64,000 nucleotides of DNA, from contig JAXLZU010000001.1 of assembly GCA_046350735.1 (NCBI GenBank), forward strand, positions 384,967-448,966, read 5' to 3'. Origin of the DNA: Candidatus Saccharimonadota bacterium. GTDB lineage: Bacteria; Patescibacteriota; Saccharimonadia; CAILAD01; BJGX01. Below the pieces are notes generated by a model. The model did not search any database and was not told the DNA's origin. It saw only the letters and a list, made by a program, of their open reading frames with translations. Within the stretch, counting starts at the first letter, position 1. Every line of letters begins with the position of its first letter. Both the position numbers and the translations under genes were made by a program. This document shows, piece by piece, positions 2,721 through 20,001 of this stretch.

Positions 2721-2795
<75 letters not shown>

Positions 2796-2896: not shown

Positions 2897-2899
2897 TAA

Positions 2900-3278: not shown

Positions 3279-3500
3279 ATGACTAAAAGCAAACAATCAA
3301 AACCCAAAGAGTTACAGTTAGATACCAAAGATAAGAAATTTGCGGGTGTCGCTGGTGGTATTGCAGAATACTATGATACCGACCCAGCTCTGGTACGAGT
3401 AGTTGCGGTAATTTTTGTTATACTAACAGGGATATTACCCGGGTTAATTATCTATGGCGTATTTTACCTGCTTATGAAGAACACCAAAAGCAAAAAATAG
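3279..3500 (+). CDS. PspC-domain small membrane protein
   Basis: FAGVAGGIAEYYDTDPALVRVVAVIFVILTG matches the PspC domain consensus (GVCGGLAEYFGIDPTLVR-like), followed by a TM helix. Confidence 0.6.
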   Translation: MTKSKQSKPKELQLDTKDKKFAGVAGGIAEYYDTDPALVRVVAVIFVILTGILPGLIIYGVFYLLMKNTKSKK

Positions 3501-3503
3501 GTG

Positions 3504-3926: not shown

Positions 3927-5206
3927 GATAAAGCGAACTCCTCAGTAATAATTTGATTACTTTTAACGCCCGCCGAAACAAAATCCTTTTTTATTGCTTT
4001 CATCATTCGTGGCGGACCACAGATCCATATAGCTGCACCAGTATTTAGGGTTTGTTTGGCAATAGAGTTAGCACTAAACTGTGGTTGATTCTCGTTATTA
4101 ATTAGATGCAAGCGAAAATTTGTTTTTGCCTTTGCAATAGTTTTTAGCTCATTCACAAAATAGGCTTGGGCGTTAGAGCGAAAACTATAATACAAATCGA
4201 CACTTTGATTATTTAATGCTTTTGCCATTGAAATGAACGGAGTTATGCCAATACCACCAGCTATCCAAACTTGGTGGGTATATTCGTCAAGTTTACTACC
4301 AAACTCGCCATATGGCCCCTCTACACTTACATTATCTCCAGCCTGTACACTACTTAAGGCATTTGTGTAGTCTCCAAGTTGTTTGATACCAAATTGAAGA
4401 TGTTTTTCTGTCGGTATAGAGGTAATACTAAACGGATGATATTGCTTTGGCAGATGGTTATTTATAACTTTAATGAATGCGAATTGTCCTGGCGCATAGT
4501 TTTGAATGCCATTGTTAGAAATAATGTCTAGCTGCAGTAAGTCTGCTTTTTTCTTGGCAGACTGAATAGTGTAATCCCAACGCTTACGGAAGCTTTTATG
4601 AAAAATTGAGCGGTAGGCAATAACAATAAGTGCCAACAGCACCCAGACAGTACCAAAAATAATCAGTGGGGTAGACTGACTTACATCGCTACCAGCAATA
4701 AAAAAGCCATGGTATGCACCCAAGAAGAAGACTAAGCCAAGAATAATTTGCAGTTTTACAAACCACTCATGTTTGATGCTTATATAAATACTAATCAAAA
4801 CTGCTACATACATTATCGCCAAGCTTGCCTCGCCGGCTAGTTGAGGAAAGTTAAGTGATGGTTTGAGAAATTGATAGCCCTGCGCTAGAGAAATAGAAGA
4901 ATAACGCAAGGTAATAAGTGTTGGGTGAATAAGTAAGAGCATAAAAGCCCAACTACCAGTAATATGGTGCCAGCGATAAAGATTTGGTAGACCCCCATAC
5001 AGCTTCTCAAAAAATGTAAGCCGAGTACTCAAAAAGATATTCCAACCAAATAATGAAAAACCTGCAATAGCACATAGTTTACCGAGAGTATTGAGTATTT
5101 CGCCAGTACTTGCAAACGCTAAAGGTTGGGTTATTAACCATAGCCCAACAGGGAATAGGGCAACTATTACTGTTGCAATGGTGGGTCTAATATCTTTCTT
5201 TTGCAT
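3923..5206 (-). CDS. Ferric-reductase-like transmembrane oxidoreductase (FRE/NOX-like: TM heme domain + FAD-binding + NAD-binding)
   Basis: Multi-TM N-terminus with His residues. HPFSITS FAD-binding motif. C-terminal GGIGITP NAD(P)-binding motif. ATGA overlap with the downstream b5 gene. Confidence 0.65.
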   Translation of the reverse strand: MQKKDIRPTIATVIVALFPVGLWLITQPLAFASTGEILNTLGKLCAIAGFSLFGWNIFLSTRLTFFEKLYGGLPNLYRWHHITGSWAFMLLLIHPTLITLRYSSISLAQGYQFLKPSLNFPQLAGEASLAIMYVAVLISIYISIKHEWFVKLQIILGLVFFLGAYHGFFIAGSDVSQSTPLIIFGTVWVLLALIVIAYRSIFHKSFRKRWDYTIQSAKKKADLLQLDIISNNGIQNYAPGQFAFIKVINNHLPKQYHPFSITSIPTEKHLQFGIKQLGDYTNALSSVQAGDNVSVEGPYGEFGSKLDEYTHQVWIAGGIGITPFISMAKALNNQSVDLYYSFRSNAQAYFVNELKTIAKAKTNFRLHLINNENQPQFSANSIAKQTLNTGAAIWICGPPRMMKAIKKDFVSAGVKSNQIITEEFALS

Positions 5207-5379
5207 ATATATAATGATACCAGTATTTCTATTTGTTTTTATAGTATTACTATTATTGCTGAAATATTGCTGAATGATGGGTATAACTATAAATATTGGT
5301 CACTTTCTGATAAAATGAGCTAGTTCGACAGATACAATATATAACAGTTAGAATAGCGTAATAACCAGACATACATTGA

Positions 5380-5400
5380 AGGGGTGTAGCTCAGTTGGCT
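5380..5400 (+). other. 21-nt exact duplicate of the 5' end (acceptor + D-arm) of tRNA-Trp; not a complete tRNA
   Basis: aggggtgtagctcagttggct at 5380-5400 is identical to 5506-5526. The downstream sequence diverges and lacks anticodon and T arms. Confidence 0.7.
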
Positions 5401-5505
5401 GTCGAGCGTTAGCGAGCACAATAGATAATTCTAGTCGGTATCCGACGCTCAAAGACAGAACATTCGAAAAACAAATATTATTAGCCATTAAACCAACCAC
5501 ACTAA

Positions 5506-5582
5506 AGGGGTGTAGCTCAGTTGGCTAGAGCGTCGGTCTCCAAAACCGAAGGCCGCGGGTTCGACTCCTGCCACCCCTGCCA
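5506..5582 (+). tRNA. tRNA-Trp (anticodon CCA)
   Basis: Acceptor AGGGGTG/CACCCCT. Anticodon stem TCGGT/ACCGA with loop cuCCAaa. T-arm GGTTCGACTCC. CCA end. Confidence 0.85.
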
Positions 5583-5671
5583 AATTAACCAGCATCGTCT
5601 GGTTTTTTATTACCTATTTTCTATCTTAGTTTGTTACCAATTATGGTACTATATACGTTAATATAAGCATT

Positions 5672-6736
5672 ATGGCAAAAAAGAAAAAGCATCGACATCA
5701 TATCTCTACAATAACTAAATTGTCTATTGTTATTGGCTGTTTTGCGTTAATAGTAGTTGGTGTTTCGGTATGGTATCAACACAATACTCAATTAGCAACA
5801 TATACCTTGGTGCAATCCAAAATTACTGAGCTAGAGACACTACAAAAAGAGAATGAGCTACAAACTATTAATATTAAACAGTTACGCTATCAGGCTGATG
5901 TGGCAAAACAACAAATAAATAAACTAGATCTTGTTGCATCGTATAATAATCTCGAGCAGTTAAAGAGCAAAACTACCACAGCCCAGGCCCTACTGGATGA
6001 GGCTATTTATAAGCGTCAAGCAGAAGAAGCTGCACAGGCTGCGCTGGCCCAAAAAAGAGAAAGTGCAATTGCCGCTAGTGGCAGTACCAGCAGCCTAGGA
6101 ACATTTGTTCTGCCTATTATTATGTATCACAAGCCGCCGGCCAATTTTGCCGAACAAATGGCTGCTCTAAAAGTCAAAGGATATACAACTATACATATGA
6201 ATGATGTTGCGAGCTTTATTGCTGGACAGACAAAACTTCCACCAAAAGCTGCGGTTATTACCTTTGATGATGGTTTTGCAGTACAAAAAAATATAATGGG
6301 CATTTTGCAGAAAAACAATCAAAAGGCCACGCTCTATCTTATTGAGGGTGGTAATATGAGTCATTATTGTATTGGTCTTTTACGTAAAAACACCTCATGT
6401 GGTGATGATTATTTATCAATTCAGGACGTTAAGAATATGATGAGTTCTAACTTGATTGAAATAGGAGACCATACGGTAGATCATCCAAATATGGCAAGCT
6501 TATCTGAGACTGATCAGCAATTTCAGATTCAGACAAACAAAGCATATCTAGAACAAACCTTTGGGGTGCCAATTACTACCTTTGCCTATCCATATGGTAA
6601 TTACAATGGGGTTACCCTAAAACTACTCAAGCAAAACGGTTTTCTTACTGCAGTAACTACTCAGCCGGGTGTAGTACAGTCACTTGCTCAGCCACTATTG
6701 CTACGGAGAATTCGCTCTACACTCGATTTACCTTAG
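5672..6736 (+). CDS. Membrane-anchored polysaccharide deacetylase (CE4/NodB-homology domain) with a coiled-coil linker
   Basis: N-terminal TM. Gln/Ala-rich coil. NodB motifs VITFDDGFA and IGDHTVDHP. Confidence 0.65.
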   Translation: MAKKKKHRHHISTITKLSIVIGCFALIVVGVSVWYQHNTQLATYTLVQSKITELETLQKENELQTINIKQLRYQADVAKQQINKLDLVASYNNLEQLKSKTTTAQALLDEAIYKRQAEEAAQAALAQKRESAIAASGSTSSLGTFVLPIIMYHKPPANFAEQMAALKVKGYTTIHMNDVASFIAGQTKLPPKAAVITFDDGFAVQKNIMGILQKNNQKATLYLIEGGNMSHYCIGLLRKNTSCGDDYLSIQDVKNMMSSNLIEIGDHTVDHPNMASLSETDQQFQIQTNKAYLEQTFGVPITTFAYPYGNYNGVTLKLLKQNGFLTAVTTQPGVVQSLAQPLLLRRIRSTLDLP

Positions 6737-6775
6737 TCTCAATAGCCTAAGTTTTCCTATGGTATAATTATACTT

Positions 6776-7453
6776 ATGCTTAAGACCGAGGGATTGAAGA
6801 AAATTTATCATATGGGTGAGGTAATTGTGCCGGCGCTGAATAATGTTTTTCTTGAGGTAGAAGACGGTGAGATGCTTTGTATTATGGGAAAATCTGGTTC
6901 AGGTAAAAGTACATTACTACACATGCTCGGTCTTATAGATTCTCCCACGAAAGGCAAAGTATTGTTTAAAGACCAAGATGTTAGCAAGCTGTCTGAGTCT
7001 AGACGGTCTAAGATACGTTTGAGTCAAATGGGGTTTGTGTTTCAAGAATATGCGTTATTGCCAGAGCTTACTGCAGTAGAAAATGTCTACTTGCCAGCTA
7101 AAATGTTGGGGCGGTGGCCAAGTGAGTATCAAGACAGAGCCGCTACCTTGCTTGAGTCGCTCGGTTTGCTCGATAGAATGCACCACAGGCCACGTGAGCT
7201 CTCGGGTGGCCAACAACAACGGGTAGCAATTGCCAGGGCAATGGTAAATAAGCCAGAGGTAATTTTTGCCGACGAGCCAACAGCCAATCTTGATACTGCG
7301 TCTGGCAAGCAGGTAATGGATGCTTTGCGCTGGCTCAATGAACAGTTTGGTACCACCATAATATTTGTATCACACGATACAGAAGATAAACGATATGCTA
7401 AACGGGTTATCTATCTCTATGATGGTAAGCTTTCTGAAGAGGCAGAAGAATAG
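6776..7453 (+). CDS. ABC transporter ATP-binding protein (LolD/FtsE/MacB-type)
   Basis: Walker A GKSGSGKST. Signature LSGGQQQRVAIARA. Walker B IIFADEPT. Confidence 0.85.
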   Translation: MLKTEGLKKIYHMGEVIVPALNNVFLEVEDGEMLCIMGKSGSGKSTLLHMLGLIDSPTKGKVLFKDQDVSKLSESRRSKIRLSQMGFVFQEYALLPELTAVENVYLPAKMLGRWPSEYQDRAATLLESLGLLDRMHHRPRELSGGQQQRVAIARAMVNKPEVIFADEPTANLDTASGKQVMDALRWLNEQFGTTIIFVSHDTEDKRYAKRVIYLYDGKLSEEAEE

Positions 7454-7455
7454 TA

Positions 7456-8661
7456 ATGAGAACTGTGCAGGTAGCATTTTTTATTGCCAGTCGCTCAATC
7501 TTTCGCGGCAACTTTTGGTTGGGTGTGATGACAGTATTAATGATGATTTTGGTGTACTTAAATCTATTGTTTGCTCCATCTCTTTTGCAAGGAGTGATTT
7601 TTCAGATGAACTCAAAATTACGTGACACGTTAGTAGGTGATATCACGGTAGAAAGTTCTACCCCTGGCGATCTTATTCCTAACTCAAGCAAGCTAGTAGA
7701 TCAGATATCGACAATAGATGGAGTAGATTCTGTGACGCAGTCACGCACTATTTCGGCACAACTTCAACTCTCCAGCGAAAGGGGGACAGCCGAAGTATCT
7801 GGTATTGACGTAGAAAGCTTTAAAGATGTCTATTCAATTCCAAGGTATATGATTGAAGGGAGTTTTCTGACACCGGGAGATAAAGACCAAATTGTACTTG
7901 GTGCTCAGATTGCGGGTGCCGGTAAAGCAAAGCTCGAGCTTTACTCAGATAGCTTAAAAAACGCCCACGCTGGTGATGTGGTAACAGTAAAATTTGCTAA
8001 TGGTGTAACCAAAAACTATACAGTAAAAGGAATTTATCAGACAGAATTTGTGCAGGCCGATTTAAAAACCCTTATTACTGCTAGTGAGTTTAGCCAGGTT
8101 ATGCCCAGTAGTATAGACAAGGCTAGTGCAATAAATGTAAAGCTTAAGCCGGGTGCCAACCAAGATAAAGTTAATCAAGAGATTCTCGCACTCAGCTCTA
8201 ATATTAAAACAAGAAGTTGGCAAGAGAGAGCTGGATTTGTACAGAGTTATACCGAAAGTATCCAGGTAATCAACAAGATCTTACGGGCAGTAGCTTTGGT
8301 GGTAGGCTTTTTAACTATATTCATTATTACGTATGTCGATGTTGTAAACAAAAAGCGACAAATTGGCATCGAGCGAGCTATTGGTATTTCACCACCAACA
8401 ATAATTTTGGCCTATGAGCTAAGGGCGCTATTTTATACCTTTATTGGTGCAATGATAGGGGCAATACTTTTTGTTACGGTTGTTGTGCCGCTCGAGGCAC
8501 GCTATCCGTTCCATTTTCCACTTGGCAATGTCTTCTTAGATGTTAACTCTAGTTTTATGATTCGAAATGTCTTTATTCTCTTGCTGGTAAGTGTTGCTAG
8601 TGCTACTTTGCCAGCTTGGCGAGCAGTCTATGGAAAAATAGTTGAAGCTATCTGGGGATAG
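7456..8661 (+). CDS. ABC transporter permease, FtsX/MacB-like, with a large extracytoplasmic domain
   Basis: N-terminal TM, ~230-aa periplasmic-type domain, three C-terminal TM helices. Located immediately after the ABC ATPase. Confidence 0.7.
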   Translation: MRTVQVAFFIASRSIFRGNFWLGVMTVLMMILVYLNLLFAPSLLQGVIFQMNSKLRDTLVGDITVESSTPGDLIPNSSKLVDQISTIDGVDSVTQSRTISAQLQLSSERGTAEVSGIDVESFKDVYSIPRYMIEGSFLTPGDKDQIVLGAQIAGAGKAKLELYSDSLKNAHAGDVVTVKFANGVTKNYTVKGIYQTEFVQADLKTLITASEFSQVMPSSIDKASAINVKLKPGANQDKVNQEILALSSNIKTRSWQERAGFVQSYTESIQVINKILRAVALVVGFLTIFIITYVDVVNKKRQIGIERAIGISPPTIILAYELRALFYTFIGAMIGAILFVTVVVPLEARYPFHFPLGNVFLDVNSSFMIRNVFILLLVSVASATLPAWRAVYGKIVEAIWG

Positions 8662-9282
8662 TTGCCATCGTGTTACAATACTTGCATGAAAGATAGTCTA
8701 GCAAATTCTAAAGCTTCTCAGACACGCTACTTTGTAGAGTTGATTACTCGCGCACAAGAAGGTGACGAGGTGGCCTTCGAAGAGCTCTACAGTGAATATT
8801 TTACGCAACTTTATCGCTATGTCTTGGTAAGAGTAGGCAGTAGTGATGAGGCAGATGATATTACTCAGCTGGTGTTTGTAAAATTTTATAAGAATTTATC
8901 TAACTGGCACGATCAAGGCTATAGCCCCTCGGCGTATTTATATACAATTGCCCGCAGTGTTATAGCAGATTATTTTCGTACTAAAGCTCGCAGCGGTAAG
9001 AAGATAGAAGGTTCTGATGAGATTTTAGCAATCATTGCCGACCCGTCACAAAATTTGCATGCAGGCGTTATATCTAACGAAGAGAAGGCAAGTCTATACA
9101 AAGCCCTCCAGCAACTTCCCGAAAACTATCAAGAAGCACTGCTTTTGCGTTATATCGAAAATCTACCTAGTAAAGAAATTGCTGAGATAATTGGTAAGAG
9201 CGATGTAGCAACTCGTAAGCTTCTCAGTCGGGCAGTTAATGCATTAGCGGAAGTAATGAAATTACAAATTAAGGAAAATTAA
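8662..9282 (+). CDS. ECF-type RNA polymerase sigma-70 factor
   Basis: Region 2 (FEELYSEYFTQLYRYVLVRVG..DDITQLVFVKFY) and region 4 HTH (LPENYQEALLLRYIENLPSKEIAEIIGKSDVATRKLLSRA). True start may be the internal ATG (MKDSLAN). Confidence 0.8.
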   Translation: MPSCYNTCMKDSLANSKASQTRYFVELITRAQEGDEVAFEELYSEYFTQLYRYVLVRVGSSDEADDITQLVFVKFYKNLSNWHDQGYSPSAYLYTIARSVIADYFRTKARSGKKIEGSDEILAIIADPSQNLHAGVISNEEKASLYKALQQLPENYQEALLLRYIENLPSKEIAEIIGKSDVATRKLLSRAVNALAEVMKLQIKEN

Positions 9283-9286
9283 AGCA

Positions 9287-9766
9287 ATGAAGTCATTATC
9301 AAATAACGATGCCGAAAAAACAGCTGAGCGCCTTGCTGAATTTTCTAATATCACACCAGACAAGCGAGCATTACTTAGACAGATTGTTAGATCTGCACCA
9401 GAGAATATTACCAGAGACAGTCAGCTAAGCAAATATTTTGCATCAACTTATCAGCAAGAAGAAAAAAAGTCTTTTATTGGCCGACCGGCCATACGTATAT
9501 ATGCAAGTATGGCAGTGGTCTTAGTTGTGTTACTTGGTGGCGGTATGGCTTGGTTTGGTTGGCAAAACAGCACTGCTGTTAGAAATACACAATCATCATC
9601 ACAAATTTCGGTTAACGGTAAAGTGTCAAACACAATTAATACAATTACTCAGCAGGCTCAGACTGAGTTGCAAACTGCTCAAAGCGCAACTATAGATACC
9701 GCAAATCTCGATACTATTAATACACAGTTAGGGCAAATGCAGGAGGCTGTAAATGAAAAATTTTAG
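9287..9766 (+). CDS. Putative membrane anti-sigma factor
   Basis: Immediately downstream of the ECF sigma gene. Cytoplasmic N-terminus, single TM (ASMAVVLVVLLGGGMAWFGW), extracytoplasmic C-terminus. Positional inference only. Confidence 0.35.
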   Translation: MKSLSNNDAEKTAERLAEFSNITPDKRALLRQIVRSAPENITRDSQLSKYFASTYQQEEKKSFIGRPAIRIYASMAVVLVVLLGGGMAWFGWQNSTAVRNTQSSSQISVNGKVSNTINTITQQAQTELQTAQSATIDTANLDTINTQLGQMQEAVNEKF

Positions 9767-10541
9767 TTCTCGACTCTTAGCAGTTATAGCTGTTGGTTTA
9801 ATTGCATTACCTACTGGTCTTATTAATCCTCTGTCGGCCAGTGCTGCTAATACCGAAGCTATTCCTCCGGCTGCATTATTTTGCGCTAGTATTAATACAA
9901 TCGGTACAAGAATAGAATCTCAGCTTGGCACCGTTACCCAACAGTCGCTACCAACTTTATACAACCCCACTACTTTTGCGGCGCGTCAAGCAAGTATCCA
10001 AACTGAGTTGGCACAAAAACGTGCAGGGTGGGATGGCGAAAGAGACCAGCACTATAACAAGATGTTGTCATTGGCACAAAATGATGCCCAAAAGACTGCT
10101 ATCGAGAATTTCAAAACTAATGTCGAAGCCGCAATAGTTGTGAGACGCAGTAGTGTAGACAACGCAATAGCTGCATATTTTAGCAACACAGGCGACAATC
10201 TAAGCGCCGAGTCTGCCCAGTTAGTAGCAGCACGACAGGAGTTTGTATCTACAGTTAAAAATGCAATTAGCACTGCCAAAACCGATTGTCTTACCAATAG
10301 GTCTACGAGCGAGATACGCTCGACTTTTCAGACAAATATTGAGACCGCTCGCTCAAAATTACAGTCTACCAGAGAGAGTATAAGCGAGTTTAAAAGTCAG
10401 CTTACAACAATACGCAAAGAAGAAGCACGTAGTATTAATGAGGCAGTAATGGTTTTTGAGACAAGTTTGAGCAAAGCCCGGCAAACCCTTGTAGAAGAAC
10501 TCAAAAAATCAGGCGCCAACACAAGCCAATTCGATATTTAG
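9753..10541 (+). CDS. Secreted Ala/Thr/Ser-rich hypothetical protein
   Basis: Signal peptide (LLAVIAVGLIALPTGLINPLSASA). Helical Ala/Gln-rich body. Confidence 0.4.
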   Translation: MKNFSSRLLAVIAVGLIALPTGLINPLSASAANTEAIPPAALFCASINTIGTRIESQLGTVTQQSLPTLYNPTTFAARQASIQTELAQKRAGWDGERDQHYNKMLSLAQNDAQKTAIENFKTNVEAAIVVRRSSVDNAIAAYFSNTGDNLSAESAQLVAARQEFVSTVKNAISTAKTDCLTNRSTSEIRSTFQTNIETARSKLQSTRESISEFKSQLTTIRKEEARSINEAVMVFETSLSKARQTLVEELKKSGANTSQFDI

Positions 10542-11206: not shown

Positions 11207-12526
11207 ATGAAACCCCAATCTAATTCAATATTACGTATTTATGGCATCTTTATTGTGGTATCGGTGATTTGTCTTGGGGGAATGGTAGCTGGTTATGTTT
11301 GGCAAAATCATCTTATTTTTTGGTTGTCATTATTATTTTTCTCTACTCTTGGTATTGTACGAATACTAATAGTTATTCATTCATTGCAGACAAAAAGCCT
11401 AACCCAAGAACATCGCAATCAGAACCTCACTAATGATCAGGCACAACTCCAAGCGCTCATTAATAGTCTTGGCGAGGCTATACTGGCAGTCAACACAAAA
11501 AGTGAAATTACTTTGTATAATTCTGCAGCACTCGAGCTAATAGATTCCCATACTGAATTAAAAGATAAAAAACTCAGTTCAGTTTTTCAGCTAGTAGACA
11601 ATGCCAGTCAACCAGTTGATGTGCTTGGTTCGGTTATTCAGGCTGGTAAAATTATTGTGCGAGATGATCTCTGTATATTGCGCGCCAAGAGCAATTCAGT
11701 AGAAGTATATATAATGGTAACTCCTATTAATAAAAATGGTGAGATAGTTGGTGCGATTGTTTTGGCGCGTGATATTACACAACAAAAGTCTCTACAAGCA
11801 CAAAAAGATGAGTTTTTAAGTGTGGTAAGTCACGAATTACGTACACCAGTCGCAATTGTAGAGGCCGACCTTTCTACGGTGTTATTACCAGGGTATACCG
11901 ACTTGCCAGAAAAGGCCAAAAAGCTACTTCATTCAGCATCCCAGAACATCACATACCTTTCTGGGTTGTTACAGGATATTTCTGATCTGTCCCACGCCGA
12001 ACGTCATATGCTAGATGTAGAACTGCAAAGTGTCGATACACAAAAACTTGCTAAAGATCTGGCTGACGATTTTTCTGCTAGAGCCCAAAAAGCTCAACTA
12101 GACTTTAAGCTCGATATCGAGCCAAATACACCTTCTATTGTTAGTTCTGGTCAAAGAATTACTGAGATCTTAGTTAACTTCTTAACGAATGCACTGAAAT
12201 ATAGTAGCGGGGTGGGCAAAACAGTTACATTACATCTTGCTCCTTCTTCGAATAAACCTGGTGGTGTTGTATTTGAGGTGAGGGATGGAGGACTAGGTAT
12301 CTCAGAGGCAGATCAGGTCAAATTGTTTACAAAATTCTTTCGATCGAGTAACCAAGCAGTACAGGCTATAAAAGGAACAGGTATGGGGCTCTATATTACT
12401 TCTCAGCAAGCTAAAAAAATTGGTGGTGATATACATCTGAGTAGTAAGCTTGGAAAAGGTAGTGCTTTTTACTTAGAGTTACCCAGCAAAGTCCCAGCAA
12501 ATCTAATTACCAAGACAACTAGCTAA
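11207..12526 (+). CDS. Sensor histidine kinase (2 TM, PAS-like, HisKA, HATPase_c)
   Basis: H-box SHELRTP. C-terminal ATPase G-boxes (DGGLGISE, GTGMGLYI). No adjacent response regulator. Confidence 0.85.
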   Translation: MKPQSNSILRIYGIFIVVSVICLGGMVAGYVWQNHLIFWLSLLFFSTLGIVRILIVIHSLQTKSLTQEHRNQNLTNDQAQLQALINSLGEAILAVNTKSEITLYNSAALELIDSHTELKDKKLSSVFQLVDNASQPVDVLGSVIQAGKIIVRDDLCILRAKSNSVEVYIMVTPINKNGEIVGAIVLARDITQQKSLQAQKDEFLSVVSHELRTPVAIVEADLSTVLLPGYTDLPEKAKKLLHSASQNITYLSGLLQDISDLSHAERHMLDVELQSVDTQKLAKDLADDFSARAQKAQLDFKLDIEPNTPSIVSSGQRITEILVNFLTNALKYSSGVGKTVTLHLAPSSNKPGGVVFEVRDGGLGISEADQVKLFTKFFRSSNQAVQAIKGTGMGLYITSQQAKKIGGDIHLSSKLGKGSAFYLELPSKVPANLITKTTS

Positions 12527-14556
12527 AATGCTTCAGTTCTATTTTGCCAGCGGGGTTTTAAAAGTTCGTATTCTATCATCGAGCCGAAGAGCAATAGCAA
12601 TTCTATGCTACAGCCGAGTGGGAAGAGCAGAGTAGATACAATGCTTTGTCGTGATGAGATAGTAATAATAAGACGATTAATATAACTCAGCAAGACGGCA
12701 GCAGCAAGAATAAATATACCCTCGTACATACCAAATACTAGGAGTATTATTAGTATGAGCGTAGGTAGAACAAATGCTATAAAACCACCCAAGAGAAGAC
12801 TTACGGTGAGTGGCATAGAGAAATGTAGTGCAGGATAAAAGCGCCTTAGATTGCCAGTAACAATTAGTCGGGTGCTGGCGTGGTTTTGGCTGGTTGCTAC
12901 GTCAGAACCAAGGTAGAAACCTGTTTCTAATCCTTTCATCTTAGCGGCTGCTGCCAAATCGAAGTCTTCAAGTGGGCTTTTGCGCACCAACGAGAATCCA
13001 CCCATTGCTTCAACACTCGTGCGTAAAAAAGCAACAAGGCTCGAGCTGGCATTAGCTACTTTGGGGTGTGTTCGAGCGAGAAGTGCTGAAGGGTAGGCCC
13101 CAAGCATAAAGAAGTGATTCTGACTTAATATAAGCTGTTGGCCAAGACTCTTATTCTGATCCGCGGGTAATACTGATACTAGACTTTTCTTTTGTTCGTT
13201 AATGAGCCCAACCAATATAGATAAGGCTTTTGGTAGAAGTACAGTATCTGCCGAGATAAATACCACTACATCGCCACTGGCTCGTGCCAGTAATGCTTCG
13301 GCAGCCCAAGCATGTATTGTCCAGCCTGGTTTGCGTGGTGGAATATCAATAATTTGCAGGCGAGGGTCTTGAAAGCCATGAACTATCTTGGCGGTGTTAT
13401 CGCTCGAGCCAAGATCTGCCATAATAATTTCAAAGTTAGGATACTCTTGGCCAACCGCAGCTAGTAAGGTAGAAGAAATATTATCGGCTTGATTATATGT
13501 GTAGGCGAGAATTGATACCATCGGTAGCTCGGTGTGGGGTTTGGTTTTTGGCCGACGAAATTTTACTAAGTTATACATTGTTAATACAAACTGTAGAACA
13601 AAAAGACATAACAAGAACCCACCAAAGATTGTTATATACTTACTACTCACATTAAATGGATCATAAACGTATAGCAGTAACTGTGCTAAGAAGAATCCAA
13701 CTAGAATATTTAGCCACATAAAATTTTTCCAAGCCCTTCTAAATTGTGCACTATGTGCATCAGAACGAAACTTATAAAAATAACTCATATTAAGAGCGTA
13801 GAGCGAGAGAAATAGTGCAGCAACCACACCATAAGGAAAGTACGCAATAGCCACAATTGTGCAGCTTAAAACATACAGCCAAAAACTATAACGGGTAGTT
13901 TTGCGAGCACCCATAACTGTTGCAATCGAGGCAATATTGGCTGCTCTATCTGGCTTAATATCTTGAATAGAACCCATTGCCTGTGATGCCATGCCCCATA
14001 ACATAAATGCGACTATTGCCGGCCAATACATATTGGTAGTATTGCCATAAAGCAAACCAAATAGTAATGGACTTACAAAATGAAGCGCTGAGTTAATAGA
14101 GTCTAAAAATGGAATTTCTTTAAATCGAAATGGCTTGGCAGAATATGTAAAGCAAAACAGAACAGTAAGCCCTAACATTATTCGGGCAATATTACTGCTT
14201 GTATATAGTAAATACCCAAGAAAGGGAATGTTTGCCGCTGCAATTACTAGCCAAAGTGCTTGATGTTTTTTCTTATCTACAAGGCCACCTTCTACAGAGT
14301 TTTTGCGAGGGTTTTTTACATCAGACTCATAATCATAAATATCATTTATTCCATATAAGAGAAGATTATATGCAAATAAGAAATACAATGTTCCAAGTAT
14401 AAATTCTAAGTTGATTGTTCTCGCAGCCAAAAGATATCCCACCACAAATGGTGCAGCAGTGTTTATCCAGCTAACCGGTCGGCTAGTGGCAAATATCTCA
14501 CGAATACTAAGTTGGGAATTATTTTTTTCGGTTGTCATTATGTATAAATCTCTCAA
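12523..14556 (-). CDS. Fusion protein: N-terminal UbiA-family prenyltransferase (lycopene-elongase-like) + central GT2 glycosyltransferase domain + C-terminal TM region
   Basis: UbiA motifs NDIYDYESD and QDIKPD in a polytopic N-terminus. GT2-like region (ILAYTYNQADNIS...IIMADLGSSDNTAKIV...VVFISADT). Adjacent to the lycopene-cyclase-domain genes. Confidence 0.6.
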   Translation of the reverse strand: MRDLYIMTTEKNNSQLSIREIFATSRPVSWINTAAPFVVGYLLAARTINLEFILGTLYFLFAYNLLLYGINDIYDYESDVKNPRKNSVEGGLVDKKKHQALWLVIAAANIPFLGYLLYTSSNIARIMLGLTVLFCFTYSAKPFRFKEIPFLDSINSALHFVSPLLFGLLYGNTTNMYWPAIVAFMLWGMASQAMGSIQDIKPDRAANIASIATVMGARKTTRYSFWLYVLSCTIVAIAYFPYGVVAALFLSLYALNMSYFYKFRSDAHSAQFRRAWKNFMWLNILVGFFLAQLLLYVYDPFNVSSKYITIFGGFLLCLFVLQFVLTMYNLVKFRRPKTKPHTELPMVSILAYTYNQADNISSTLLAAVGQEYPNFEIIMADLGSSDNTAKIVHGFQDPRLQIIDIPPRKPGWTIHAWAAEALLARASGDVVVFISADTVLLPKALSILVGLINEQKKSLVSVLPADQNKSLGQQLILSQNHFFMLGAYPSALLARTHPKVANASSSLVAFLRTSVEAMGGFSLVRKSPLEDFDLAAAAKMKGLETGFYLGSDVATSQNHASTRLIVTGNLRRFYPALHFSMPLTVSLLLGGFIAFVLPTLILIILLVFGMYEGIFILAAAVLLSYINRLIITISSRQSIVSTLLFPLGCSIELLLLFGSMIEYELLKPRWQNRTEAF

Positions 14557-14863
14557 ATAAGGCTGGGCCTAGCAAAACCACAACGAGCAAATAGCCAAAA
14601 TCTTCGATTGGTATTGAGCCAATATGTATACCCAAAACCAAGTTCTTATTATACTCCACTATTGGCAGAGCGGTGAGATAACCGTCAAAAACCAGCATGG
14701 CAAGAGTAAGAGGTATTAACATGAGTAAAATAGTTTTACGAATTGGTAGTCTGAGTCTGAAGATAGAGAGTATCACAACTGCTACGAGTAAAAGCACCAA
14801 AATGAGGCCGATGTATCTAAGCATTTTTCTGCCCGCCCTGTGGGTTAATAAGTCTGTAGACAA
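14519..14863 (-). CDS. Lycopene-cyclase-domain protein (heterodimeric C50/C40 cyclase subunit, CrtYf/CrtYd-like)
   Basis: ~110 aa, 3 TM helices. Hallmark PxE(E/D) motif IPIEDFGYLL. Start may be the internal ATG (MLRYIG). Confidence 0.6.
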   Translation of the reverse strand: MSTDLLTHRAGRKMLRYIGLILVLLLVAVVILSIFRLRLPIRKTILLMLIPLTLAMLVFDGYLTALPIVEYNKNLVLGIHIGSIPIEDFGYLLVVVLLGPALFERFIHNDNRKK

Positions 14864-15152
14864 TCAGTGTTACATAGCTGAGCAAAAACAGAAAAACGAA
14901 CTCTTCTATAGGTAGGTTTGGGGAGAAAATATGTAGTCCGGTAACATACCGTTGATTAGTAAAAAAAATCCCTAGTCTTATCCCAGCTAAATCTGCTAAT
15001 AGTAAAATAGCCATTAGGCAAGCAATGGTTTTTATAGCTGCTCTAGGCTGATAGAAAAATACAAGTTTTAGATAGGCATCGGCTAGTAATAGGCCGCTAA
15101 TTCCAACAAGCAAAACAAACAAGTAAAACCAATGCGAATAGACGATAATCAT
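14817..15152 (-). CDS. Lycopene-cyclase-domain protein (CrtYe/CrtYc-like subunit)
   Basis: 111 aa, 3 TM helices. Motif LPIEEFVFLF. Confidence 0.6.
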   Translation of the reverse strand: MIIVYSHWFYLFVLLVGISGLLLADAYLKLVFFYQPRAAIKTIACLMAILLLADLAGIRLGIFFTNQRYVTGLHIFSPNLPIEEFVFLFLLSYVTLIVYRLINPQGGQKNA

Positions 15153-15206
15153 ATAAGTAATTATACTCTAACCCCAACACTGTGATAGTCGTGTTATGAT
15201 AATTAA

Positions 15207-16694
15207 ATGAAAAAATCAGTCATTATTATAGGTGGTGGAATAGGTGGACTTTGTACGGCAGCGCGTCTGCTGAAGAATGGCTATGAGGTTACTATCTATG
15301 AAAAAGAAGATAAGGTTGGTGGCCGTGCTCATAGAATAGAAAAAAATGGCTATACTTTTGATACTGGACCAACACTGTTAATGATGACCGATGTACTCTA
15401 CGATACATTCTCATATTGTGGTAAAAATTTTGACGATTATATTACGCTCTTACAGCTAGAGCCGAATTACCGCGTAGCCTTTGGCGATAAAAGCAAGATT
15501 ACCGTTAGTAGCAACTTGCCAAAATTTCAGGCAGAACTTGCTAAGTTCGACCCTAAAGCACCAGAACAATTTTTGCGTTTCTTCTCCGATATTGCAGAGA
15601 TGTATCGTATCTCTCGAGCCGACTTTATCGATAAAAATTTTAATTACATAACTGATTTTCTCAATTTGCGCTCTGGTACTCAGTTATTGAGAAAACGAGG
15701 CCTAACCAAACTGTATCCATTTGTTTCGCGTTATTTTGACGATGAGCGTTTGCGTCAGTTATTTAGTTTTCAGAGTATGTATTTGGGCGTTAGCCCGTAC
15801 GAGGCCCCAGCAATTTACTCTATTGTTAGTTATATGGAGACGGGTCTTGGTATCTGGTATCCAAAAGGTGGTATGTACTCACTTAGCCTCGCCTTACAAA
15901 AGCTAGTAAAAGATCTGGGTGGCAAAATACGGCTTGGCACACCAGTCAAAAAAGTGTGTATAGAAGATAAAAAAGCTACAGGTGTAGAGTTAGAAACAGG
16001 CAGAACTCATAAAGCCAATATTGTAATAGCCAATGCCGATCTAGTATATGCGTATAAAAACCTTATTCCAGCAGAGAAGCGCAAAAAAATGCCAAATGCT
16101 CGGCTTGATAGCTACAAACAAGCTAGTTCGGCATTGCTATTTTATTGGGGAGTAGACGATGAGTGTAAAGATATGTTGCATCATAATGTGTATCTTTGCA
16201 AAGACTTTGAGGCCAACCTAGAACAAATCCTTACTAGCAAGAAGCTGCCTAAAGACCCATCATTTTACACATATATACCTACCAAGACAGACCCTAGTTT
16301 AGCCCCCAAAGGTAAGCAAGTATTTTATGTCTTAGTGCCGGTACCAAACCTAGAAGGCAAGAATAATTGGCAAAAGGGAATTAAAAAAATTCGAGAACAA
16401 GTCTTGGCTCGATTAAAAAGTGAATTTAATTTAGATATAGCACACAAAATAACCACAGAGACTATTTTTACCCCACAAGACTTTGCAGATAAATTTAACC
16501 TTACAAACGGTTCGGCATTTGGGTTGAGCCACCACTTCTTTCAGTCGGGTGCATTTCGGCCACACAACTATAGTAAAGAAATAGCCAATATGTACTTCGT
16601 GGGTGCCAGTACGTATCCAGGTGGTGGTATTCCTATGGTTACACTTAGTGCCAAGCTTGTAACGGAGAGAATTCTAGGCGATAATGGTCATTAA
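15207..16694 (+). CDS. crtI: Phytoene desaturase
   Basis: N-terminal FAD fold VIIIGGGIGGLCTAARL...IYEKEDKVGGRA. 495 aa, full-length CrtI-like. Located in the carotenoid cluster. Confidence 0.85.
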   Translation: MKKSVIIIGGGIGGLCTAARLLKNGYEVTIYEKEDKVGGRAHRIEKNGYTFDTGPTLLMMTDVLYDTFSYCGKNFDDYITLLQLEPNYRVAFGDKSKITVSSNLPKFQAELAKFDPKAPEQFLRFFSDIAEMYRISRADFIDKNFNYITDFLNLRSGTQLLRKRGLTKLYPFVSRYFDDERLRQLFSFQSMYLGVSPYEAPAIYSIVSYMETGLGIWYPKGGMYSLSLALQKLVKDLGGKIRLGTPVKKVCIEDKKATGVELETGRTHKANIVIANADLVYAYKNLIPAEKRKKMPNARLDSYKQASSALLFYWGVDDECKDMLHHNVYLCKDFEANLEQILTSKKLPKDPSFYTYIPTKTDPSLAPKGKQVFYVLVPVPNLEGKNNWQKGIKKIREQVLARLKSEFNLDIAHKITTETIFTPQDFADKFNLTNGSAFGLSHHFFQSGAFRPHNYSKEIANMYFVGASTYPGGGIPMVTLSAKLVTERILGDNGH

Positions 16695-16700
16695 TAAATT

Positions 16701-17777
16701 ATGGTAGATAAAAACTTAGTTGAGTTTATTGGCTATGTCAAAACAGAGACAGACAAGCGTCTGGATGAAATTTTTGATGCCAAAATTGCTCGTGCCGGCG
16801 AGCTCGACTCTGAATACAAAAAATTACTTATCGAGACAAAGAAACAGGTGTTGCGAGGTGGTAAGCGTCTTAGACCAGCCCTTGCCGTACTTGGCTATAA
16901 AATAGCTGGTGGTAAAAAGATAGAAACTATGCTTGACACTGCAGTTGCTTTAGAAATCTTTCATAATTATCTCTTAATTCATGATGATTTTATGGATAGA
17001 GATGACAGACGACATGGAGGTCTCAATATTACTGGTGTATATAAGAAAAAACTACAAAGGGTACTTAAGCCAAGTAATCTGCAACACATCGCCGATAGCC
17101 AAGCCATCTTAGCAGGGGACATATGTTGTGGACTAAGCTATGAGGTTATTACCCAGTCTGGCTTTGGCTCTGAGGCTAAACTGCGAGCAGTGGATAGACT
17201 AAACCAAGCAGTGTTTGAGGTTGCCGCCGGCCAACAGCTTGATATTTTAGCGAGTTTTATGCAGAAGGTATCGATGCGACATATTTTAAAAATTAACTAT
17301 TATAAAACGGCAGGATACTCGGTAATAATGCCATTACAGTTTGGTGCAATTTTGGCAGGAGATGGTGCTAAGCTACATCCAATTATCGAAGAGTACGGTG
17401 AAGGGGTGGGTATTGGCTATCAGCTAGTGGATGATGTAATTGGAATGTTTGGTAGCGAGAGAGTAATTGGCAAGCCAGTAATTTCGGATTTACGCGAAGG
17501 CAAACAAACACTTCTGTATTTTTACGGTATGGCATTAAGTAACAAGAGTCAGAAAGCCTTTCTAGAAAAGTCGTTTCGCAACCCAAATGCCAATATGGCG
17601 ATGCTAAAAGAAGTTAGGGCAATTCTCGAAGATAATGGCGCCAAAGCTAAGACACTTTTACTAGCCAAATCGAAGGCAGACGAAGCTACCAAAATAGCAC
17701 CCAAGCTAACGAGCAACCCAGAGTTGCAAAAGCTTCTTATTTCGTTTGCTAACTATTGTGTAGAGCGAAAGTATTAG
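16701..17777 (+). CDS. crtE: Polyprenyl (geranylgeranyl) diphosphate synthase
   Basis: First Asp-rich motif LLIHDDFMDRDD and second VDDVIG. GKRLRPAL start typical of trans-IPPS. Confidence 0.75.
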   Translation: MVDKNLVEFIGYVKTETDKRLDEIFDAKIARAGELDSEYKKLLIETKKQVLRGGKRLRPALAVLGYKIAGGKKIETMLDTAVALEIFHNYLLIHDDFMDRDDRRHGGLNITGVYKKKLQRVLKPSNLQHIADSQAILAGDICCGLSYEVITQSGFGSEAKLRAVDRLNQAVFEVAAGQQLDILASFMQKVSMRHILKINYYKTAGYSVIMPLQFGAILAGDGAKLHPIIEEYGEGVGIGYQLVDDVIGMFGSERVIGKPVISDLREGKQTLLYFYGMALSNKSQKAFLEKSFRNPNANMAMLKEVRAILEDNGAKAKTLLLAKSKADEATKIAPKLTSNPELQKLLISFANYCVERKY

Positions 17778-17778
17778 T

Positions 17779-18618
17779 ATGGACAATCAAAAACTTTACA
17801 GTCAGCTAGCCTACCAGACCAGCGGACGAGTTACGGCTGCGTATTCTACGTCCTTTTCATTGGCTATCACGCTAGTAGACAAGTCGATGAGGGCACATAT
17901 TTATGCGGTGTATGGGCTGGTAAGACTTGCTGATGAGGTAGTGGATAGTTTTCGTCCCCATGATTCTCGCCAGCTACTTGAAAAACTCGAGCACGAGGTT
18001 TATGCAGCTTTAGAATCTGGCTATAGTACTAATCTACTGATTCACTCATTTGCCACTACTGCAAAGACCTATAATTTTGAGCTTGGTTTGATACGAGCAT
18101 TCTTTGCTAGTATGCGCATGGATATTACCAAGACTAATTATACCCAGAGAGAGTATGAAGACTACATTTATGGCTCTGCCGAAGTCATAGGGCTAATGTG
18201 TTTGCATGTCTTTACAGATAATGACAGCTCATTGTATTCACGTCTACAACCTTCTGCACGGGCATTAGGCGCGGCATTTCAAAAGATTAACTTTCTACGA
18301 GATATGGCAGCCGATCATAATCAGCTAGGACGGATGTATTTTCCGAATGTTGTATTCGACAAGATGAGCCAAAAAAACAAAAAAGATATTATTGCAGATA
18401 TCTCGAAAGATATTCGAAAAGCCAGACGTGGTCTGGTAAGCTTACCCAAAAGTAGTCGATACGCAGTATTGCTTGCACTTTATTACTATGAGGCCTTAAT
18501 TAAACAGCTTAAAAAGGCGCCTGTCGAAACAGTCAAGACAAGGCGCTTACGTATATCAAATACTCATAAGCTATGGCTATATGTCTTGGTACGAATACAA
18601 AAGACCTTCAATGTTTAA
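17779..18618 (+). CDS. crtB: Phytoene synthase
   Basis: Squalene/phytoene synthase family (YAVYGLVRLADEVVD...; RDMAADHNQLGRMYFP). Tightly coupled after crtE. Confidence 0.85.
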   Translation: MDNQKLYSQLAYQTSGRVTAAYSTSFSLAITLVDKSMRAHIYAVYGLVRLADEVVDSFRPHDSRQLLEKLEHEVYAALESGYSTNLLIHSFATTAKTYNFELGLIRAFFASMRMDITKTNYTQREYEDYIYGSAEVIGLMCLHVFTDNDSSLYSRLQPSARALGAAFQKINFLRDMAADHNQLGRMYFPNVVFDKMSQKNKKDIIADISKDIRKARRGLVSLPKSSRYAVLLALYYYEALIKQLKKAPVETVKTRRLRISNTHKLWLYVLVRIQKTFNV

Positions 18619-18639: not shown

Positions 18640-20001
18640 ATGAAGAACCCCCGTTCAGAAGAAGAAATTACTGTCGATGGCATCCGTTATAATATTGCCA
18701 AAGGAAAAGTAGTAGAAGACGAAAATCTCCAACAACATGCACGTGGCCTAGATAGTATTCGCGGGCAACACCAGGTTACCGCTGAATCAGCTGGCCAGAA
18801 AAATGCGTTAGAGTCAAACCATTTACAGCAAGATGAAGCAGCTATTATTGATCTGCCCAAGCGCAAGCGTAAACGAGTAAAAAACCTAAAAAAGACCGTT
18901 GTTATAGACCCTACAATACCTAGTTATGGCAATTATTTTGCCAAGGCTCTTTTGCCGAGCGGGTTTTCGGCATCAGCCTGGATATTTAGTGTGTTGCGTG
19001 GCATTACCAGCCCACTTGCCTGGTTGTTAATAGCACTACCTATCATTATTTTGCAAACCCAAAACCTCGCTAATGAGAATATCAATCAGCTACTCGAAAA
19101 AGCACATCAACTAACCCAAAATGGCTTAGTTTTTCATGCCACAGGGCCAATCATTTTTGCTATAGTTTTTCCTGCAGCAATTATTTTTATTCGTGTAATA
19201 TGTAACGCAATTGCACTGCATTTGCGTATAACAATGCTTGCTGATCTGCCAGCTAGACTATGGCCAGCCACAAAGTTAGTGTTTCATAATAGTCTCAAGA
19301 TGTTATTACACGGCATACTACAAATATTCTTATTAGGTTTGGTAAGTATACTAGCGTTAATAACTATATTTTGGGCAATATTTATGCCTCACGGTCACAC
19401 ACTTACGGTATTCTCTCCCTATATTGTTGGGTTGGTTATTTTTATCTGGCTGGTACTACTTTGTCTATTACATGCCAAACATTGGTTGCAATCAGCAATC
19501 CTCTCAAGCAGCTTAAAAACCTCTGCAATTCAACGCCGTAGCTGGGAAGCTGTTGCTGCATATCCGCTGCGTAGCAGTATATTGGCGGCGACTAGTTTTG
19601 TATTATCATTCGGTATTATTGTGTATGGTGTCTGGGCGGCACTCAGAGCAATTAGTTGGCTCAATCGTAGCGTCGTACCATCGAACACTCGGTTTGTTCT
19701 GCTGATGAGTAGTATATTTTTGGGTGTAGTGCTGGTGGGGTACATCCAACAGACTCTTTGGAGTGCTTATGCTAGTTGGCTTAATACACAATACACACCA
19801 AGTCTGTTTGCGTTGACAAAAGAATCAGAAATTAAGCGAACCGCCTGGTGGCCTATTTGGGTATCTACCTACCTTTTTGTTATGACGCTCTCGCTTATAG
19901 CGCTTGGTATTATTTTTGTTTTACCAGTAGTTAATACTTGGGCGGTAAGTATCTCACATAAAATACCTAACAAAATTGAAATCCCTCGGTTTGATAAATA
20001 G
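18640..20001 (+). CDS. Polytopic membrane protein of unknown function with a ~110-aa hydrophilic N-terminus
   Basis: At least 8 hydrophobic segments. No recognisable motif. Confidence 0.4.
   Translation: MKNPRSEEEITVDGIRYNIAKGKVVEDENLQQHARGLDSIRGQHQVTAESAGQKNALESNHLQQDEAAIIDLPKRKRKRVKNLKKTVVIDPTIPSYGNYFAKALLPSGFSASAWIFSVLRGITSPLAWLLIALPIIILQTQNLANENINQLLEKAHQLTQNGLVFHATGPIIFAIVFPAAIIFIRVICNAIALHLRITMLADLPARLWPATKLVFHNSLKMLLHGILQIFLLGLVSILALITIFWAIFMPHGHTLTVFSPYIVGLVIFIWLVLLCLLHAKHWLQSAILSSSLKTSAIQRRSWEAVAAYPLRSSILAATSFVLSFGIIVYGVWAALRAISWLNRSVVPSNTRFVLLMSSIFLGVVLVGYIQQTLWSAYASWLNTQYTPSLFALTKESEIKRTAWWPIWVSTYLFVMTLSLIALGIIFVLPVVNTWAVSISHKIPNKIEIPRFDK

Follow-up and report, generated by a model that had tools for sequence, protein, structure and literature searches.

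A lycopene elongase-type prenyltransferase fused to a family 2 glycosyltransferase in a predicted C50 carotenoid gene cluster of freshwater Saccharibacteria

What a bacterium of the candidate phyla radiation (CPR) would do with a seemingly complete set of genes for a C50 carotenoid, and how it came by them, is the question raised by a locus in Candidatus Saccharimonadota bacterium (assembly GCA_046350735.1, contig JAXLZU010000001.1). Members of the CPR, or Patescibacteria, are viewed as metabolically minimal organisms that obtain their lipids from hosts. The stretch of DNA analysed here, referred to as the window, comprises 64,000 nucleotides (nt; contig positions 384,967 to 448,966, forward strand), and coordinates are counted from its first letter. 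An earlier note on the window had placed six open reading frames (ORFs) at 12523-18618, with crtI-crtE-crtB on the plus strand divergent from two small cyclase-domain genes and from a gene joining a UbiA prenyltransferase to a glycosyltransferase of family 2 (GT2). All six are present at these positions, and the divergent layout is borne out. The predicted identity of the locus as a complete C50-type cluster with a fused elongase/GT2 gene is well supported. The reading preferred here, to which a probability of about 0.7 is assigned, is that the cluster encodes a pathway to a glycosylated cyclic C50 carotenoid which freshwater Saccharibacteria carry on the chromosome and inherit vertically. The genes of the cluster, and the segments into which the fused protein divides, are the following (aa, amino acids):

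12523..14538, minus strand, UbiA+GT2 fusion, 671 aa from the likely start, ATG 14538
13666..14514, minus strand, predicted UbiA lycopene elongase domain of the fusion, ORF residues ~15-297
13573..13650, minus strand, linker transmembrane helix from UbiA to GT2, residues ~303-328 by hydropathy (helix 298-326 in the AlphaFold2 model)
12877..13539, minus strand, GT2 domain (GT-A fold), residues ~340-560, PF00535 E 1e-16
12526..12876, minus strand, C-terminal transmembrane helix bundle of the GT2 module, residues ~561-677, ending in a conserved KPRWQNR
14519..14824, minus strand, cyclase subunit B (cycB), 101 aa from ATG 14824; the ORF from TTG 14863 has 114 aa
14817..15152, minus strand, cyclase subunit A (cycA), 111 aa
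15153..15206, divergent intergenic region, 54 bp between the two divergent units
15207..16694, plus strand, crtI, phytoene desaturase family, 495 aa, TIGR02734 516 bits against a cut-off of 238
16701..17777, plus strand, crtE, short-chain polyprenyl diphosphate synthase, presumed to make geranylgeranyl diphosphate (GGPP), 358 aa, PF00348 polyprenyl_synt E 5e-48
17779..18618, plus strand, crtB, phytoene synthase, 279 aa, PF00494 SQS_PSY E 5e-42

The profile E-values of the cluster genes are far beyond chance. The mechanical ORF of the fusion spans 12523-14556 on the minus strand and would yield 677 aa from a TTG at 14556; the ATG at 14538 is the likelier start, because the resulting 671 aa equal the length of a 99%-identical database protein (P0001) and agree with gene calls on four independent contigs. 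That elongase and glycosyltransferase are encoded in one polypeptide, as the earlier note had proposed, is confirmed by matches to UbiA PF01040 (residues 35-281, E 2e-24) and Glycos_transf_2 PF00535 (residues 348-513, E 1e-16). An assembly or frameshift artefact was considered and is ruled out, since over 100 independent clusters and assemblies show this ~670-aa ORF. The minus-strand genes are tightly packed: the cycA and cycB reading frames overlap by 8 nt, the fusion start overlaps the end of cycB by 20 nt, and the fusion stop overlaps a convergent histidine kinase gene by 4 nt. Both promoters must sit inside the 54-bp intergenic region. A consensus promoter scan found 20 sites against 22.6 expected, no excess over chance, and the combined promoter and terminator scan likewise gave no excess over shuffled expectation. 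The crtI gene is the sole CrtI-family gene of the window, and its product is 63-92% identical across related loci. The best equivalog models for CrtE are of the GGPP/IdsA type, all below cut-off, so that GGPP as its product is a presumption from sequence. On one side the cluster is flanked by an adenylate kinase/PAS-histidine kinase pair, on the other by secE-nusG-rplK-rplA, and a second assembly (GCA_964570715.1) matches the window across 19 kb with 98.1% identity.

Several independent comparisons place the UbiA half among the lycopene elongases. Its best curated model is NF009608 (PRK13105, CrtEb-type) at 325.4 bits against a cut-off of 217, and it falls below cut-off for NF010119 (150 bits, cut-off 248) and for the LyeJ or haloarchaeal-type model NF009516 (142 bits, cut-off 205). 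In BLASTP against characterised elongases, for which the DNA of the C50 reference genes was taken from the supplement of PMC6393565 and translated, ~284-296 aa were aligned at E values from 2e-74 to 4e-52. Identities were 43.7% to Corynebacterium glutamicum CrtEb (E 2e-74, 284 aa), 40.8% to C. efficiens CrtEb, 40.9% to the elongase part of Dietzia LbtBC and 38.4% to CrtE2 of M. luteus. A haloarchaeal LyeJ orthologue from a canonical crtD-lyeJ-cruF cluster is ~31% identical. Both Asp motifs are intact, GINDIYDYESD representing the NDxxDxxxD motif that the earlier note had reported and QDIKPDR a second one of the form DxxxD, and together with the signature blocks SRPxSWxNTA, NPRK, RFKExPxLD and WGMASQ they align residue by residue with CrtEb, CrtE2 and LbtBC. 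Past the fused family, the next-best relatives are Dietzia-type UbiA+cyclase fusions (LbtBC), which themselves score 413-448 bits with NF009608; a match on an Arthrobacter megaplasmid lies in a crtE-crtB-crtI-lbtA-lbtBC-marR cluster. Assignment as a MenA/UbiA quinone prenyltransferase was tried and rejected, with 29.7 bits for MenA NF004751 (cut-off 264) and 36.7 bits for ubiA_other (cut-off 180.8). Curated models, BLASTP and the tree described below thus agree in grouping the UbiA half with the characterised elongases CrtEb, CrtE2 and LbtC and away from MenA/UbiA. A sequence search of solved structures with the fusion returned generic GT2 matches only and no UbiA match.

The two small genes upstream of the fusion encode one-domain cyclase subunits, as had been suggested from their PxEE/PxED motifs. 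Both exceed the cut-off of 39.4 bits for the TIGR03462 "lycopene cyclase domain" (55.7 bits for cycB, 52.3 for cycA); PIED is found in cycB and PIEE in cycA, and hydropathy indicates three hydrophobic segments in each. When compared by BLASTP with the C50 reference types CrtYe/Yf, CrtYg/Yh and LbtA/LbtB, the subunits fall into opposite classes. CycA matches the CrtYe/CrtYg/LbtA type only (CrtYe 40% identity, E 4e-14; CrtYg E 2e-13; LbtA E 3e-10; range to 4e-10). CycB matches the CrtYf/CrtYh/LbtB type only (LbtB E 2e-9; CrtYh 3e-9; CrtYf 1e-7; range 2e-9 to 3e-7), with no significant match to the CrtYe/CrtYg/LbtA type. There is therefore one subunit of each type, in the order A-B-elongase, and the earlier identification of heterodimeric mini-cyclases plus a UbiA elongase as a C50-type arrangement holds. 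Overlapping reading frames are also a feature of the characterised C50 operons (PMC6393565). Since the UbiA half and each cyclase subunit are orthologous to characterised C50 enzymes, a cyclic C50 pathway is well supported, with a ring type (epsilon, gamma or beta) that is not readable from sequence.

The GT2 half has the layout of a complete ~380-aa membrane GT2, in which a GT-A domain lies between an anchor helix and a C-terminal bundle of helices. Standalone GT2 relatives of ~380 aa align from their own residue ~5-15 to query residue ~10-20; they carry an N-terminal anchor helix that matches the linker, which indicates that the fusion is an end-to-end join in which the anchor helix became the linker. 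In an AlphaFold2 model of the whole protein (mean predicted local distance difference test score, pLDDT, 89.8; predicted template modelling score, pTM, 0.87) the two domains of this membrane protein are confidently packed, and the Foldseek neighbours of the GT2 half are membrane GT2s, namely PcManGT (6yv7), the cellulose synthase BcsA, hyaluronan synthase and ArnC. An exhaustive HMMER search with the GT2 half showed a sharp fall in score: members of the Saccharibacteria family reach 194 bits or more, the next matches 146 bits or less, and the large set below this drop consists mostly of standalone proteins ~380 aa long. The HpnB and CruG models match 41 of 41 members of a test set consisting of the window's own domain and its 40 nearest relatives from outside its family, and are the families matched by most members. 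For the window GT2 itself these are likewise the best curated models, at 90.3 bits for HpnB (cut-off 379) and 56.7 bits for CruG (cut-off 600). CruG/HpnB/CrtQ-like GT2s have in common with the window GT2 the N-terminal transmembrane helix, the GT-A domain, the C-terminal transmembrane bundle and the length of ~380 aa, whereas the window domain lies far under the equivalog cut-offs (57 against 600; 90 against 379). Two near relatives, P0294 (601 aa) and P0313 (633 aa), are GT2+Caroten_synth (CruF-type hydratase) and GT2+acyltransferase fusions, which suggests that this group of GT2s is recurrently joined to carotenoid-tailoring enzymes. Within the family the DXD position reads [S/G/A/D]-A-D, and its last Asp (D437) is invariant in 109 of 109 sequences. 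Members of the Saccharibacteria clade have [S/G/A]-A-D. Canonical D-A-D occurs in only 11 of the 109, the number of remote fused forms, and was seen in every Chloroflexota fused sequence inspected. The domain also bears an E530-D531 pair.

Each chemical step of the pathway, as well as the ring type, the sugar and the C50 carotenoid as acceptor of the GT2 half, is inferred. CrtE would supply GGPP, CrtB would join two GGPP into phytoene, and CrtI would desaturate phytoene to lycopene. The UbiA half, as a CrtEb-type enzyme, would then add C5 units at C-2 and C-2' of lycopene, giving an acyclic, flavuxanthin-type C50 carotenoid that bears hydroxyl groups, and the two ~100-aa membrane subunits would close the end rings as a heterodimeric C50 cyclase. 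The GT2 half, a GT-A domain that is anchored in the membrane and belongs with the CruG/HpnB-like "isoprenoid-lipid" GT2s, would finally move a sugar from a nucleotide sugar to the hydroxyls on the added C5 units. The fusion would in this way physically couple the first and the last of the C50-specific steps.

The closest characterised parallel is the decaprenoxanthin pathway of C. glutamicum, in which deletion and complementation established the order from lycopene to flavuxanthin (CrtEb), to decaprenoxanthin (CrtYeYf) and to its glucosides (PMC3598387). By analogy, the logic of this pathway fits the window cluster. CrtE, CrtB, CrtI, a two-subunit cyclase and a UbiA elongase are common to both, and the order cycA-cycB-elongase with overlapping frames is that of crtYe-crtYf-crtEb. 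The C. glutamicum genes form one operon, crtE-cg0722-crtB-crtI-crtYe-crtYf-crtEb, with crtX elsewhere, whereas those of the window form two divergent units; the glycosyltransferase is a separate gene in C. glutamicum and fused to the elongase in the window; the window cluster has neither an MMPL/RND gene nor a MarR-type CrtR regulator; and its host is a CPR bacterium rather than an actinobacterium. In C. glutamicum the pathway ends with a cyclic C50 carotenoid in glucosylated form, while the end product of the window cluster is predicted from its genes. The genes for glucosylation in C. glutamicum were still unknown as of 2012 (PMC3598387). Fusion within the same pathway has a precedent in Dietzia sp. 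CQ4, where lbtA-lbtBC serve the C.p.450 pathway and LbtBC joins cyclase subunit B to the elongase. In Dietzia, however, the fusion partner is an N-terminal cyclase subunit, whereas in the window it is a C-terminal GT2 and both cyclase subunits are free-standing. Together with Dietzia, the crtE-crtB-crtI-lbtA-lbtBC cluster of the Arthrobacter plasmid provides the next-best relatives beyond the fused family.

The elongase-GT2 fusion is a conserved family that extends beyond this one genome. Approximately 100 protein clusters of ~670-aa UbiA+GT2 proteins were found at 40-99% identity, and the named ones are Saccharibacteria or unclassified "bacterium". The characterisation of the surrounding gene set as CPR-like is upheld, in that the genome is that of a Candidatus Saccharibacteria member and all named fusion homologues above 40% identity are Saccharibacteria or Patescibacteria. 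A scan of GTDB species representatives gave 35 loci, all from metagenome-assembled genomes of Saccharibacteria or Patescibacteria; the scan used a Saccharibacteria-only alignment that is blind to non-CPR carriers, for which taxonomy was taken from the cluster names. The source habitats of the loci are largely lakes and rivers, including Baikal, Mendota, Biwa, ELA and Umeå. In 28 loci cycA-cycB-fusion stands beside crtI, and where the contig is long enough crtE is also present, usually crtB, and mostly secE-nusG. The cluster shares the secE-nusG-rplK-rplA site even among Saccharibacteria whose fusions are only 44-65% identical. More remote fused proteins, at 31-37% identity, form a clade from Chloroflexota (e.g., MBP1704569.1; Limnocylindrales), in which the fusions occupy cyc-cyc-fusion-crtI-crtB operons on contigs of 0.8 and 2.4 Mb. 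These proteins have the two-domain architecture in common with the window protein; in the GT2 half their identity to it is no more than 22-26%, and they keep the canonical DDGSTD and DAD motifs. Literature text searches found no description of the elongase-GT2 fusion, and public annotations of it read only "prenyltransferase", "glycosyltransferase" or "4-hydroxybenzoate polyprenyltransferase". The fusion cluster is partly anticipated in the literature and is not unique to this genome.

An unfused arrangement was also encountered. At positions 5539-10475 of locus L048 (GCA_004297735.1, Patescibacteria group bacterium), cycA-cycB-UbiA faces crtI-crtE-crtB in the same divergent layout as in the window. 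The 280-aa elongase of L048 is unfused, and no GT2 gene lies close by. The CrtI of this locus shares 55% identity with the window CrtI, whereas the UbiA protein falls outside the clades of Saccharibacteria, Chloroflexota and Actinobacteria.

As to how the cluster was acquired, the earlier note had favoured horizontal transfer, plausibly from an actinobacterial host. A recent transfer of this kind would make sense of the fact that carotenoid pathways are unusual among CPR bacteria and that the characterised C50 pathways are actinobacterial, and Actinobacteria are known hosts of Saccharibacteria (PMC9296517). Composition, synteny, the elongase tree and the relatives of CrtI all speak against it, and it is regarded as highly improbable. 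The cluster genes have a GC content of 0.375-0.411 and a third-position GC content (GC3) of 0.33-0.39, against 0.38-0.44 and 0.30-0.41 for the flanking core genes; the composition of the cluster is native and indistinguishable from that of its neighbours. Most related loci occupy the common secE-nusG site at fusion identities down to 44%. In a neighbour-joining tree of UbiA domains with the LyeJ orthologue as root, the Saccharibacteria fused forms are monophyletic (100%), as are those of Chloroflexota (100%), and the two fused clades are sisters with 73% bootstrap support. The enzymes of Actinobacteria, all four characterised references among them, group in a clade of their own (85%), and the Saccharibacteria elongases are not nested in it. 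The best 120 CrtI relatives are Patescibacteria wherever named, down to 52% identity, and the first outlier (P0250, 45%) comes from a genome with crtI-crtB-P450 and no elongase. The unfused version in the same divergent layout in another Patescibacterium (GCA_004297735.1) also stands against recent transfer. An ancient exchange between phyla, perhaps with Chloroflexota, is possible. Distances in the neighbour-joining tree of the GT2 domain are saturated, and this tree leaves one versus two fusion events undecided.

Not all members of the family retain the pathway. Six loci (L025 and L034-L038) keep the fusion without cycA, cycB, crtI or crtB within ±6 kb, and only L034 among them has a crtE-like gene. 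Five of the six adjoin secE-nusG, and the contig of L038 stops short of that site. The orphan fusion genes lie as follows:

L025 and L034-L036, ~6001-8000, orphan fusion gene
L037, 3098-5008, orphan fusion gene
L038, 1013-2953, orphan fusion gene

These loci are scattered over three separate places of the fusion tree, which implies that crt and cyclase genes were lost repeatedly and polyphyletically. Neither UbiA Asp motif survives in L034-L038, five of the six: NDIYDYESD has become, for example, DSICEDKYN, DIMYSPKIS or DRGFDRLAQ, and QDIKPDR has become PSIKVDR, GRISTDR or PTLSHKR. In L025 the first motif is merely partly altered. NDxxDxxxD and DxxxDR are intact in 28 of 28 cluster-bearing loci. 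Motif decay in the UbiA half is seen only where the crt genes are gone, which ties this half functionally to them, and the same pattern lends indirect support to the predicted addition of C5 units to lycopene. The GT2 motifs (xAD, ED) remain intact in the orphans, and the ORF remains full length, e.g., 665 aa in L036. The median ratio of UbiA to GT2 identity is 1.18 among cluster-bearing pairs (n=284), 0.83 between cluster-bearing and dead-motif orphan fusions, and 0.74 among dead-motif orphans. Between L034 and L038 the UbiA halves are 41% and the GT2 halves 67% identical, the GT2 being the slower-evolving half. Conservation of the GT2 where the elongase is dead indicates that it is selected independently of the cell's own elongation. 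Repeated elongase decay with GT2 retention is the most interesting new element of the analysis.

A number of observations weigh against a glycosylated cyclic C50 carotenoid as the product of the window cluster. The GT2 half lies below every curated equivalog cut-off, including that of the carotenoid glycosyltransferases; S-A-D replaces the canonical D-x-D in the window GT2; and the first nucleotide-binding Asp is changed to Asn in 24 of 109 family members. Given the constraint on the GT2 where the elongase is dead, its acceptor need not be the cell's own C50 product. The specificity of the cyclase pair for C50 rather than C40 substrates is read from gene context, the cyclase references compared having all been of the C50 type. 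Part of this would be accommodated if the GT2 acted, instead or in addition, on some other membrane acceptor (a polyprenol phosphate, a glycerolipid or a host isoprenoid alcohol) and the UbiA half served largely as a membrane scaffold, an account that is possible and rather doubtful. It would explain why the ORF stays full length in L034-L038 after destruction of the UbiA motifs, why the GT2 is there the intact and better-conserved half, and why such losses recur in three lineages, and it agrees with the failure of the GT2 to reach any carotenoid-glycosyltransferase cut-off. It sits poorly with the translational coupling of the fusion to the cyclase genes in cluster-bearing genomes, with the presence of UbiA+GT2 fusions inside crt operons of Chloroflexota, and with the fusion of near GT2 relatives to a CruF-type hydratase and to an acyltransferase; glycosylated C50 carotenoids are moreover the usual end products in the characterised actinobacterial systems. 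A narrower proposal is that in crt-less lineages the GT2 glycosylates alcohols, carotenoid or isoprenoid, which the cell takes from the membrane of its host, e.g., from pigmented freshwater Actinobacteria; on that view certain CPR episymbionts would produce a membrane-spanning C50 glycolipid pigment themselves, and others would tailor that of their host. This proposal is unlikely. The suggestion in the earlier note of a single enzyme that elongates and glycosylates thus remains plausible and unproven, qualified by the S-A-D motif and by the retention of the GT2 where the elongase is dead.

Two further alternatives concern the carotenoid itself. Heterodimeric one-domain cyclases also serve as C40 lycopene cyclases in some Actinobacteria, and TIGR03462 is blind to the difference between C40 and C50 cyclases, so that the pair could be a C40 lycopene beta-cyclase of the CrtYc/Yd type leading to beta-carotene, the UbiA half prenylating something else. 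The orthology of the UbiA domain to characterised lycopene elongases, the decay of its catalytic motifs in just those loci that have lost the crt genes, and an overlap of cyclase and elongase genes like that in characterised C50 operons make this very unlikely. The other alternative is an acyclic, bacterioruberin-type C50 carotenoid made by way of LyeJ, CrtD and CruF, as homologous genes from Lake Baikal were read. Bacterioruberin synthesis was proposed for Baikal Patescibacteria, including Baikal-deep-G192, on the basis of "lyeJ, crtD, cruF" (PMC9948471), and Baikal-deep-G192 corresponds to locus L026 (SICB01000004.1) of the present comparison, which holds a full cyclase-bearing CrtEb-type cluster with the GT2 fusion. 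The LyeJ-CrtD-CruF pathway of haloarchaea and Arthrobacter does employ a homologous UbiA-type C5 elongation, with the UbiA half ~26-31% identical to LyeJ and the window CrtI ~29% identical to haloarchaeal CrtD. The UbiA half nevertheless scores 142 bits with NF009516, below the LyeJ-type cut-off of 205, against 325 bits with NF009608, and is 41-44% identical to CrtEb/LbtC against 31% for the LyeJ orthologue. Two cyclase genes are translationally coupled to the elongase, in L026 as elsewhere, and no CruF homologue was found in the window or in any locus compared, including the 12-kb L026 locus. A bacterioruberin-type product is accordingly most improbable, and the assignment of the Baikal genomes (PMC9948471) is probably wrong in type, their genes being of the cyclic CrtEb-type rather than the acyclic LyeJ-type. 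The pathway to a glycosylated cyclic C50 carotenoid is thus the reading retained.

Directly 3' of crtB and co-directional with it lies one more gene, whose membership in the system is uncertain:

18640..20001, plus strand, polytopic membrane protein, 453 aa

This protein matches no Pfam or NCBIfam family; a set of 5.8 billion proteins yielded only 9 homologues, and the AlphaFold2 model of the protein (pLDDT 52.6) does not suffice for a fold search. Related loci, among them the crt-less L025 and L036, have a fast-evolving counterpart in the matching position between the cluster and secE, with weak similarity to the window protein (best E 1e-4). On the opposite side of the cluster, the PAS-HisKA-HATPase kinase gene (11207-12526) that converges on the fusion has no adjacent response regulator, and such a kinase is found at the matching position in several related loci. 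Further upstream, an extracytoplasmic function (ECF) sigma factor gene at 8662-9282 is followed by two ORFs without annotation (9287-9766 and 9753-10541), the second of which looks secreted.

Other parts of the window touch the carotenoid genes less closely. A NOX/ferric-reductase-like membrane flavocytochrome (Ferric_reduct+FAD_binding_8+NAD_binding_1) is encoded at 3923-5206 on the minus strand, a cytochrome-b5-like gene (3504-3926, minus strand) overlaps it, and four tRNA genes bracket the pair (2634-5582). Collinearity with a 98%-identical strain (L001) stops at window position 5575, within tRNA-Trp, so that the segment 2634-5582 is strain-specific. A GtrA-like / PMT_2 / GT2 / PMT_2 block at 33991-38321 points to lipid-linked glycosylation of the cell envelope, separate from the carotenoid GT2. 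Upstream of rplJ-rplL, a ribosomal protein L10 leader (RF00557) was detected at 29023-29155 with 44.4 bits against a gathering score of 44. The segment 45460-64000 is a probable integrated mobile element beside tRNA-Gln (45460-45534), with these recognisable components:

45606-47096, minus strand, serine recombinase
48048-48833, Replic_Relax protein
53736-54428, Eco47II-type restriction enzyme, with DNA methylase at 54469-55707
59755-62370, minus strand, DUF87/TrwB-like ATPase

Freshwater Saccharibacteria have rhodopsins and lack blh (Jaffe et al., PMC9296517). No rhodopsin and no carotenoid-cleavage (retinal-forming) gene was found among the annotated parts of the window. The cluster bears on the rhodopsin question in Saccharibacteria, in that carotenoid synthesis genes are present in these organisms. 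A six-gene pigment pathway at one site in dozens of freshwater Saccharibacteria species represents a real biosynthetic investment, and the pigment may serve photoprotection or reinforce the membrane as a bilayer-spanning C50 glycolipid. For the enzymes themselves, the fusion provides Rosetta-stone evidence that physically links the CruG/HpnB-like GT2 group to C50 carotenoid tailoring, and it offers a one-gene "elongate and glycosylate" part that could be used in engineering C50 carotenoid glycosides. The lineages with a dead elongase and a live GT2 constitute a natural experiment on the role of the glycosyltransferase.

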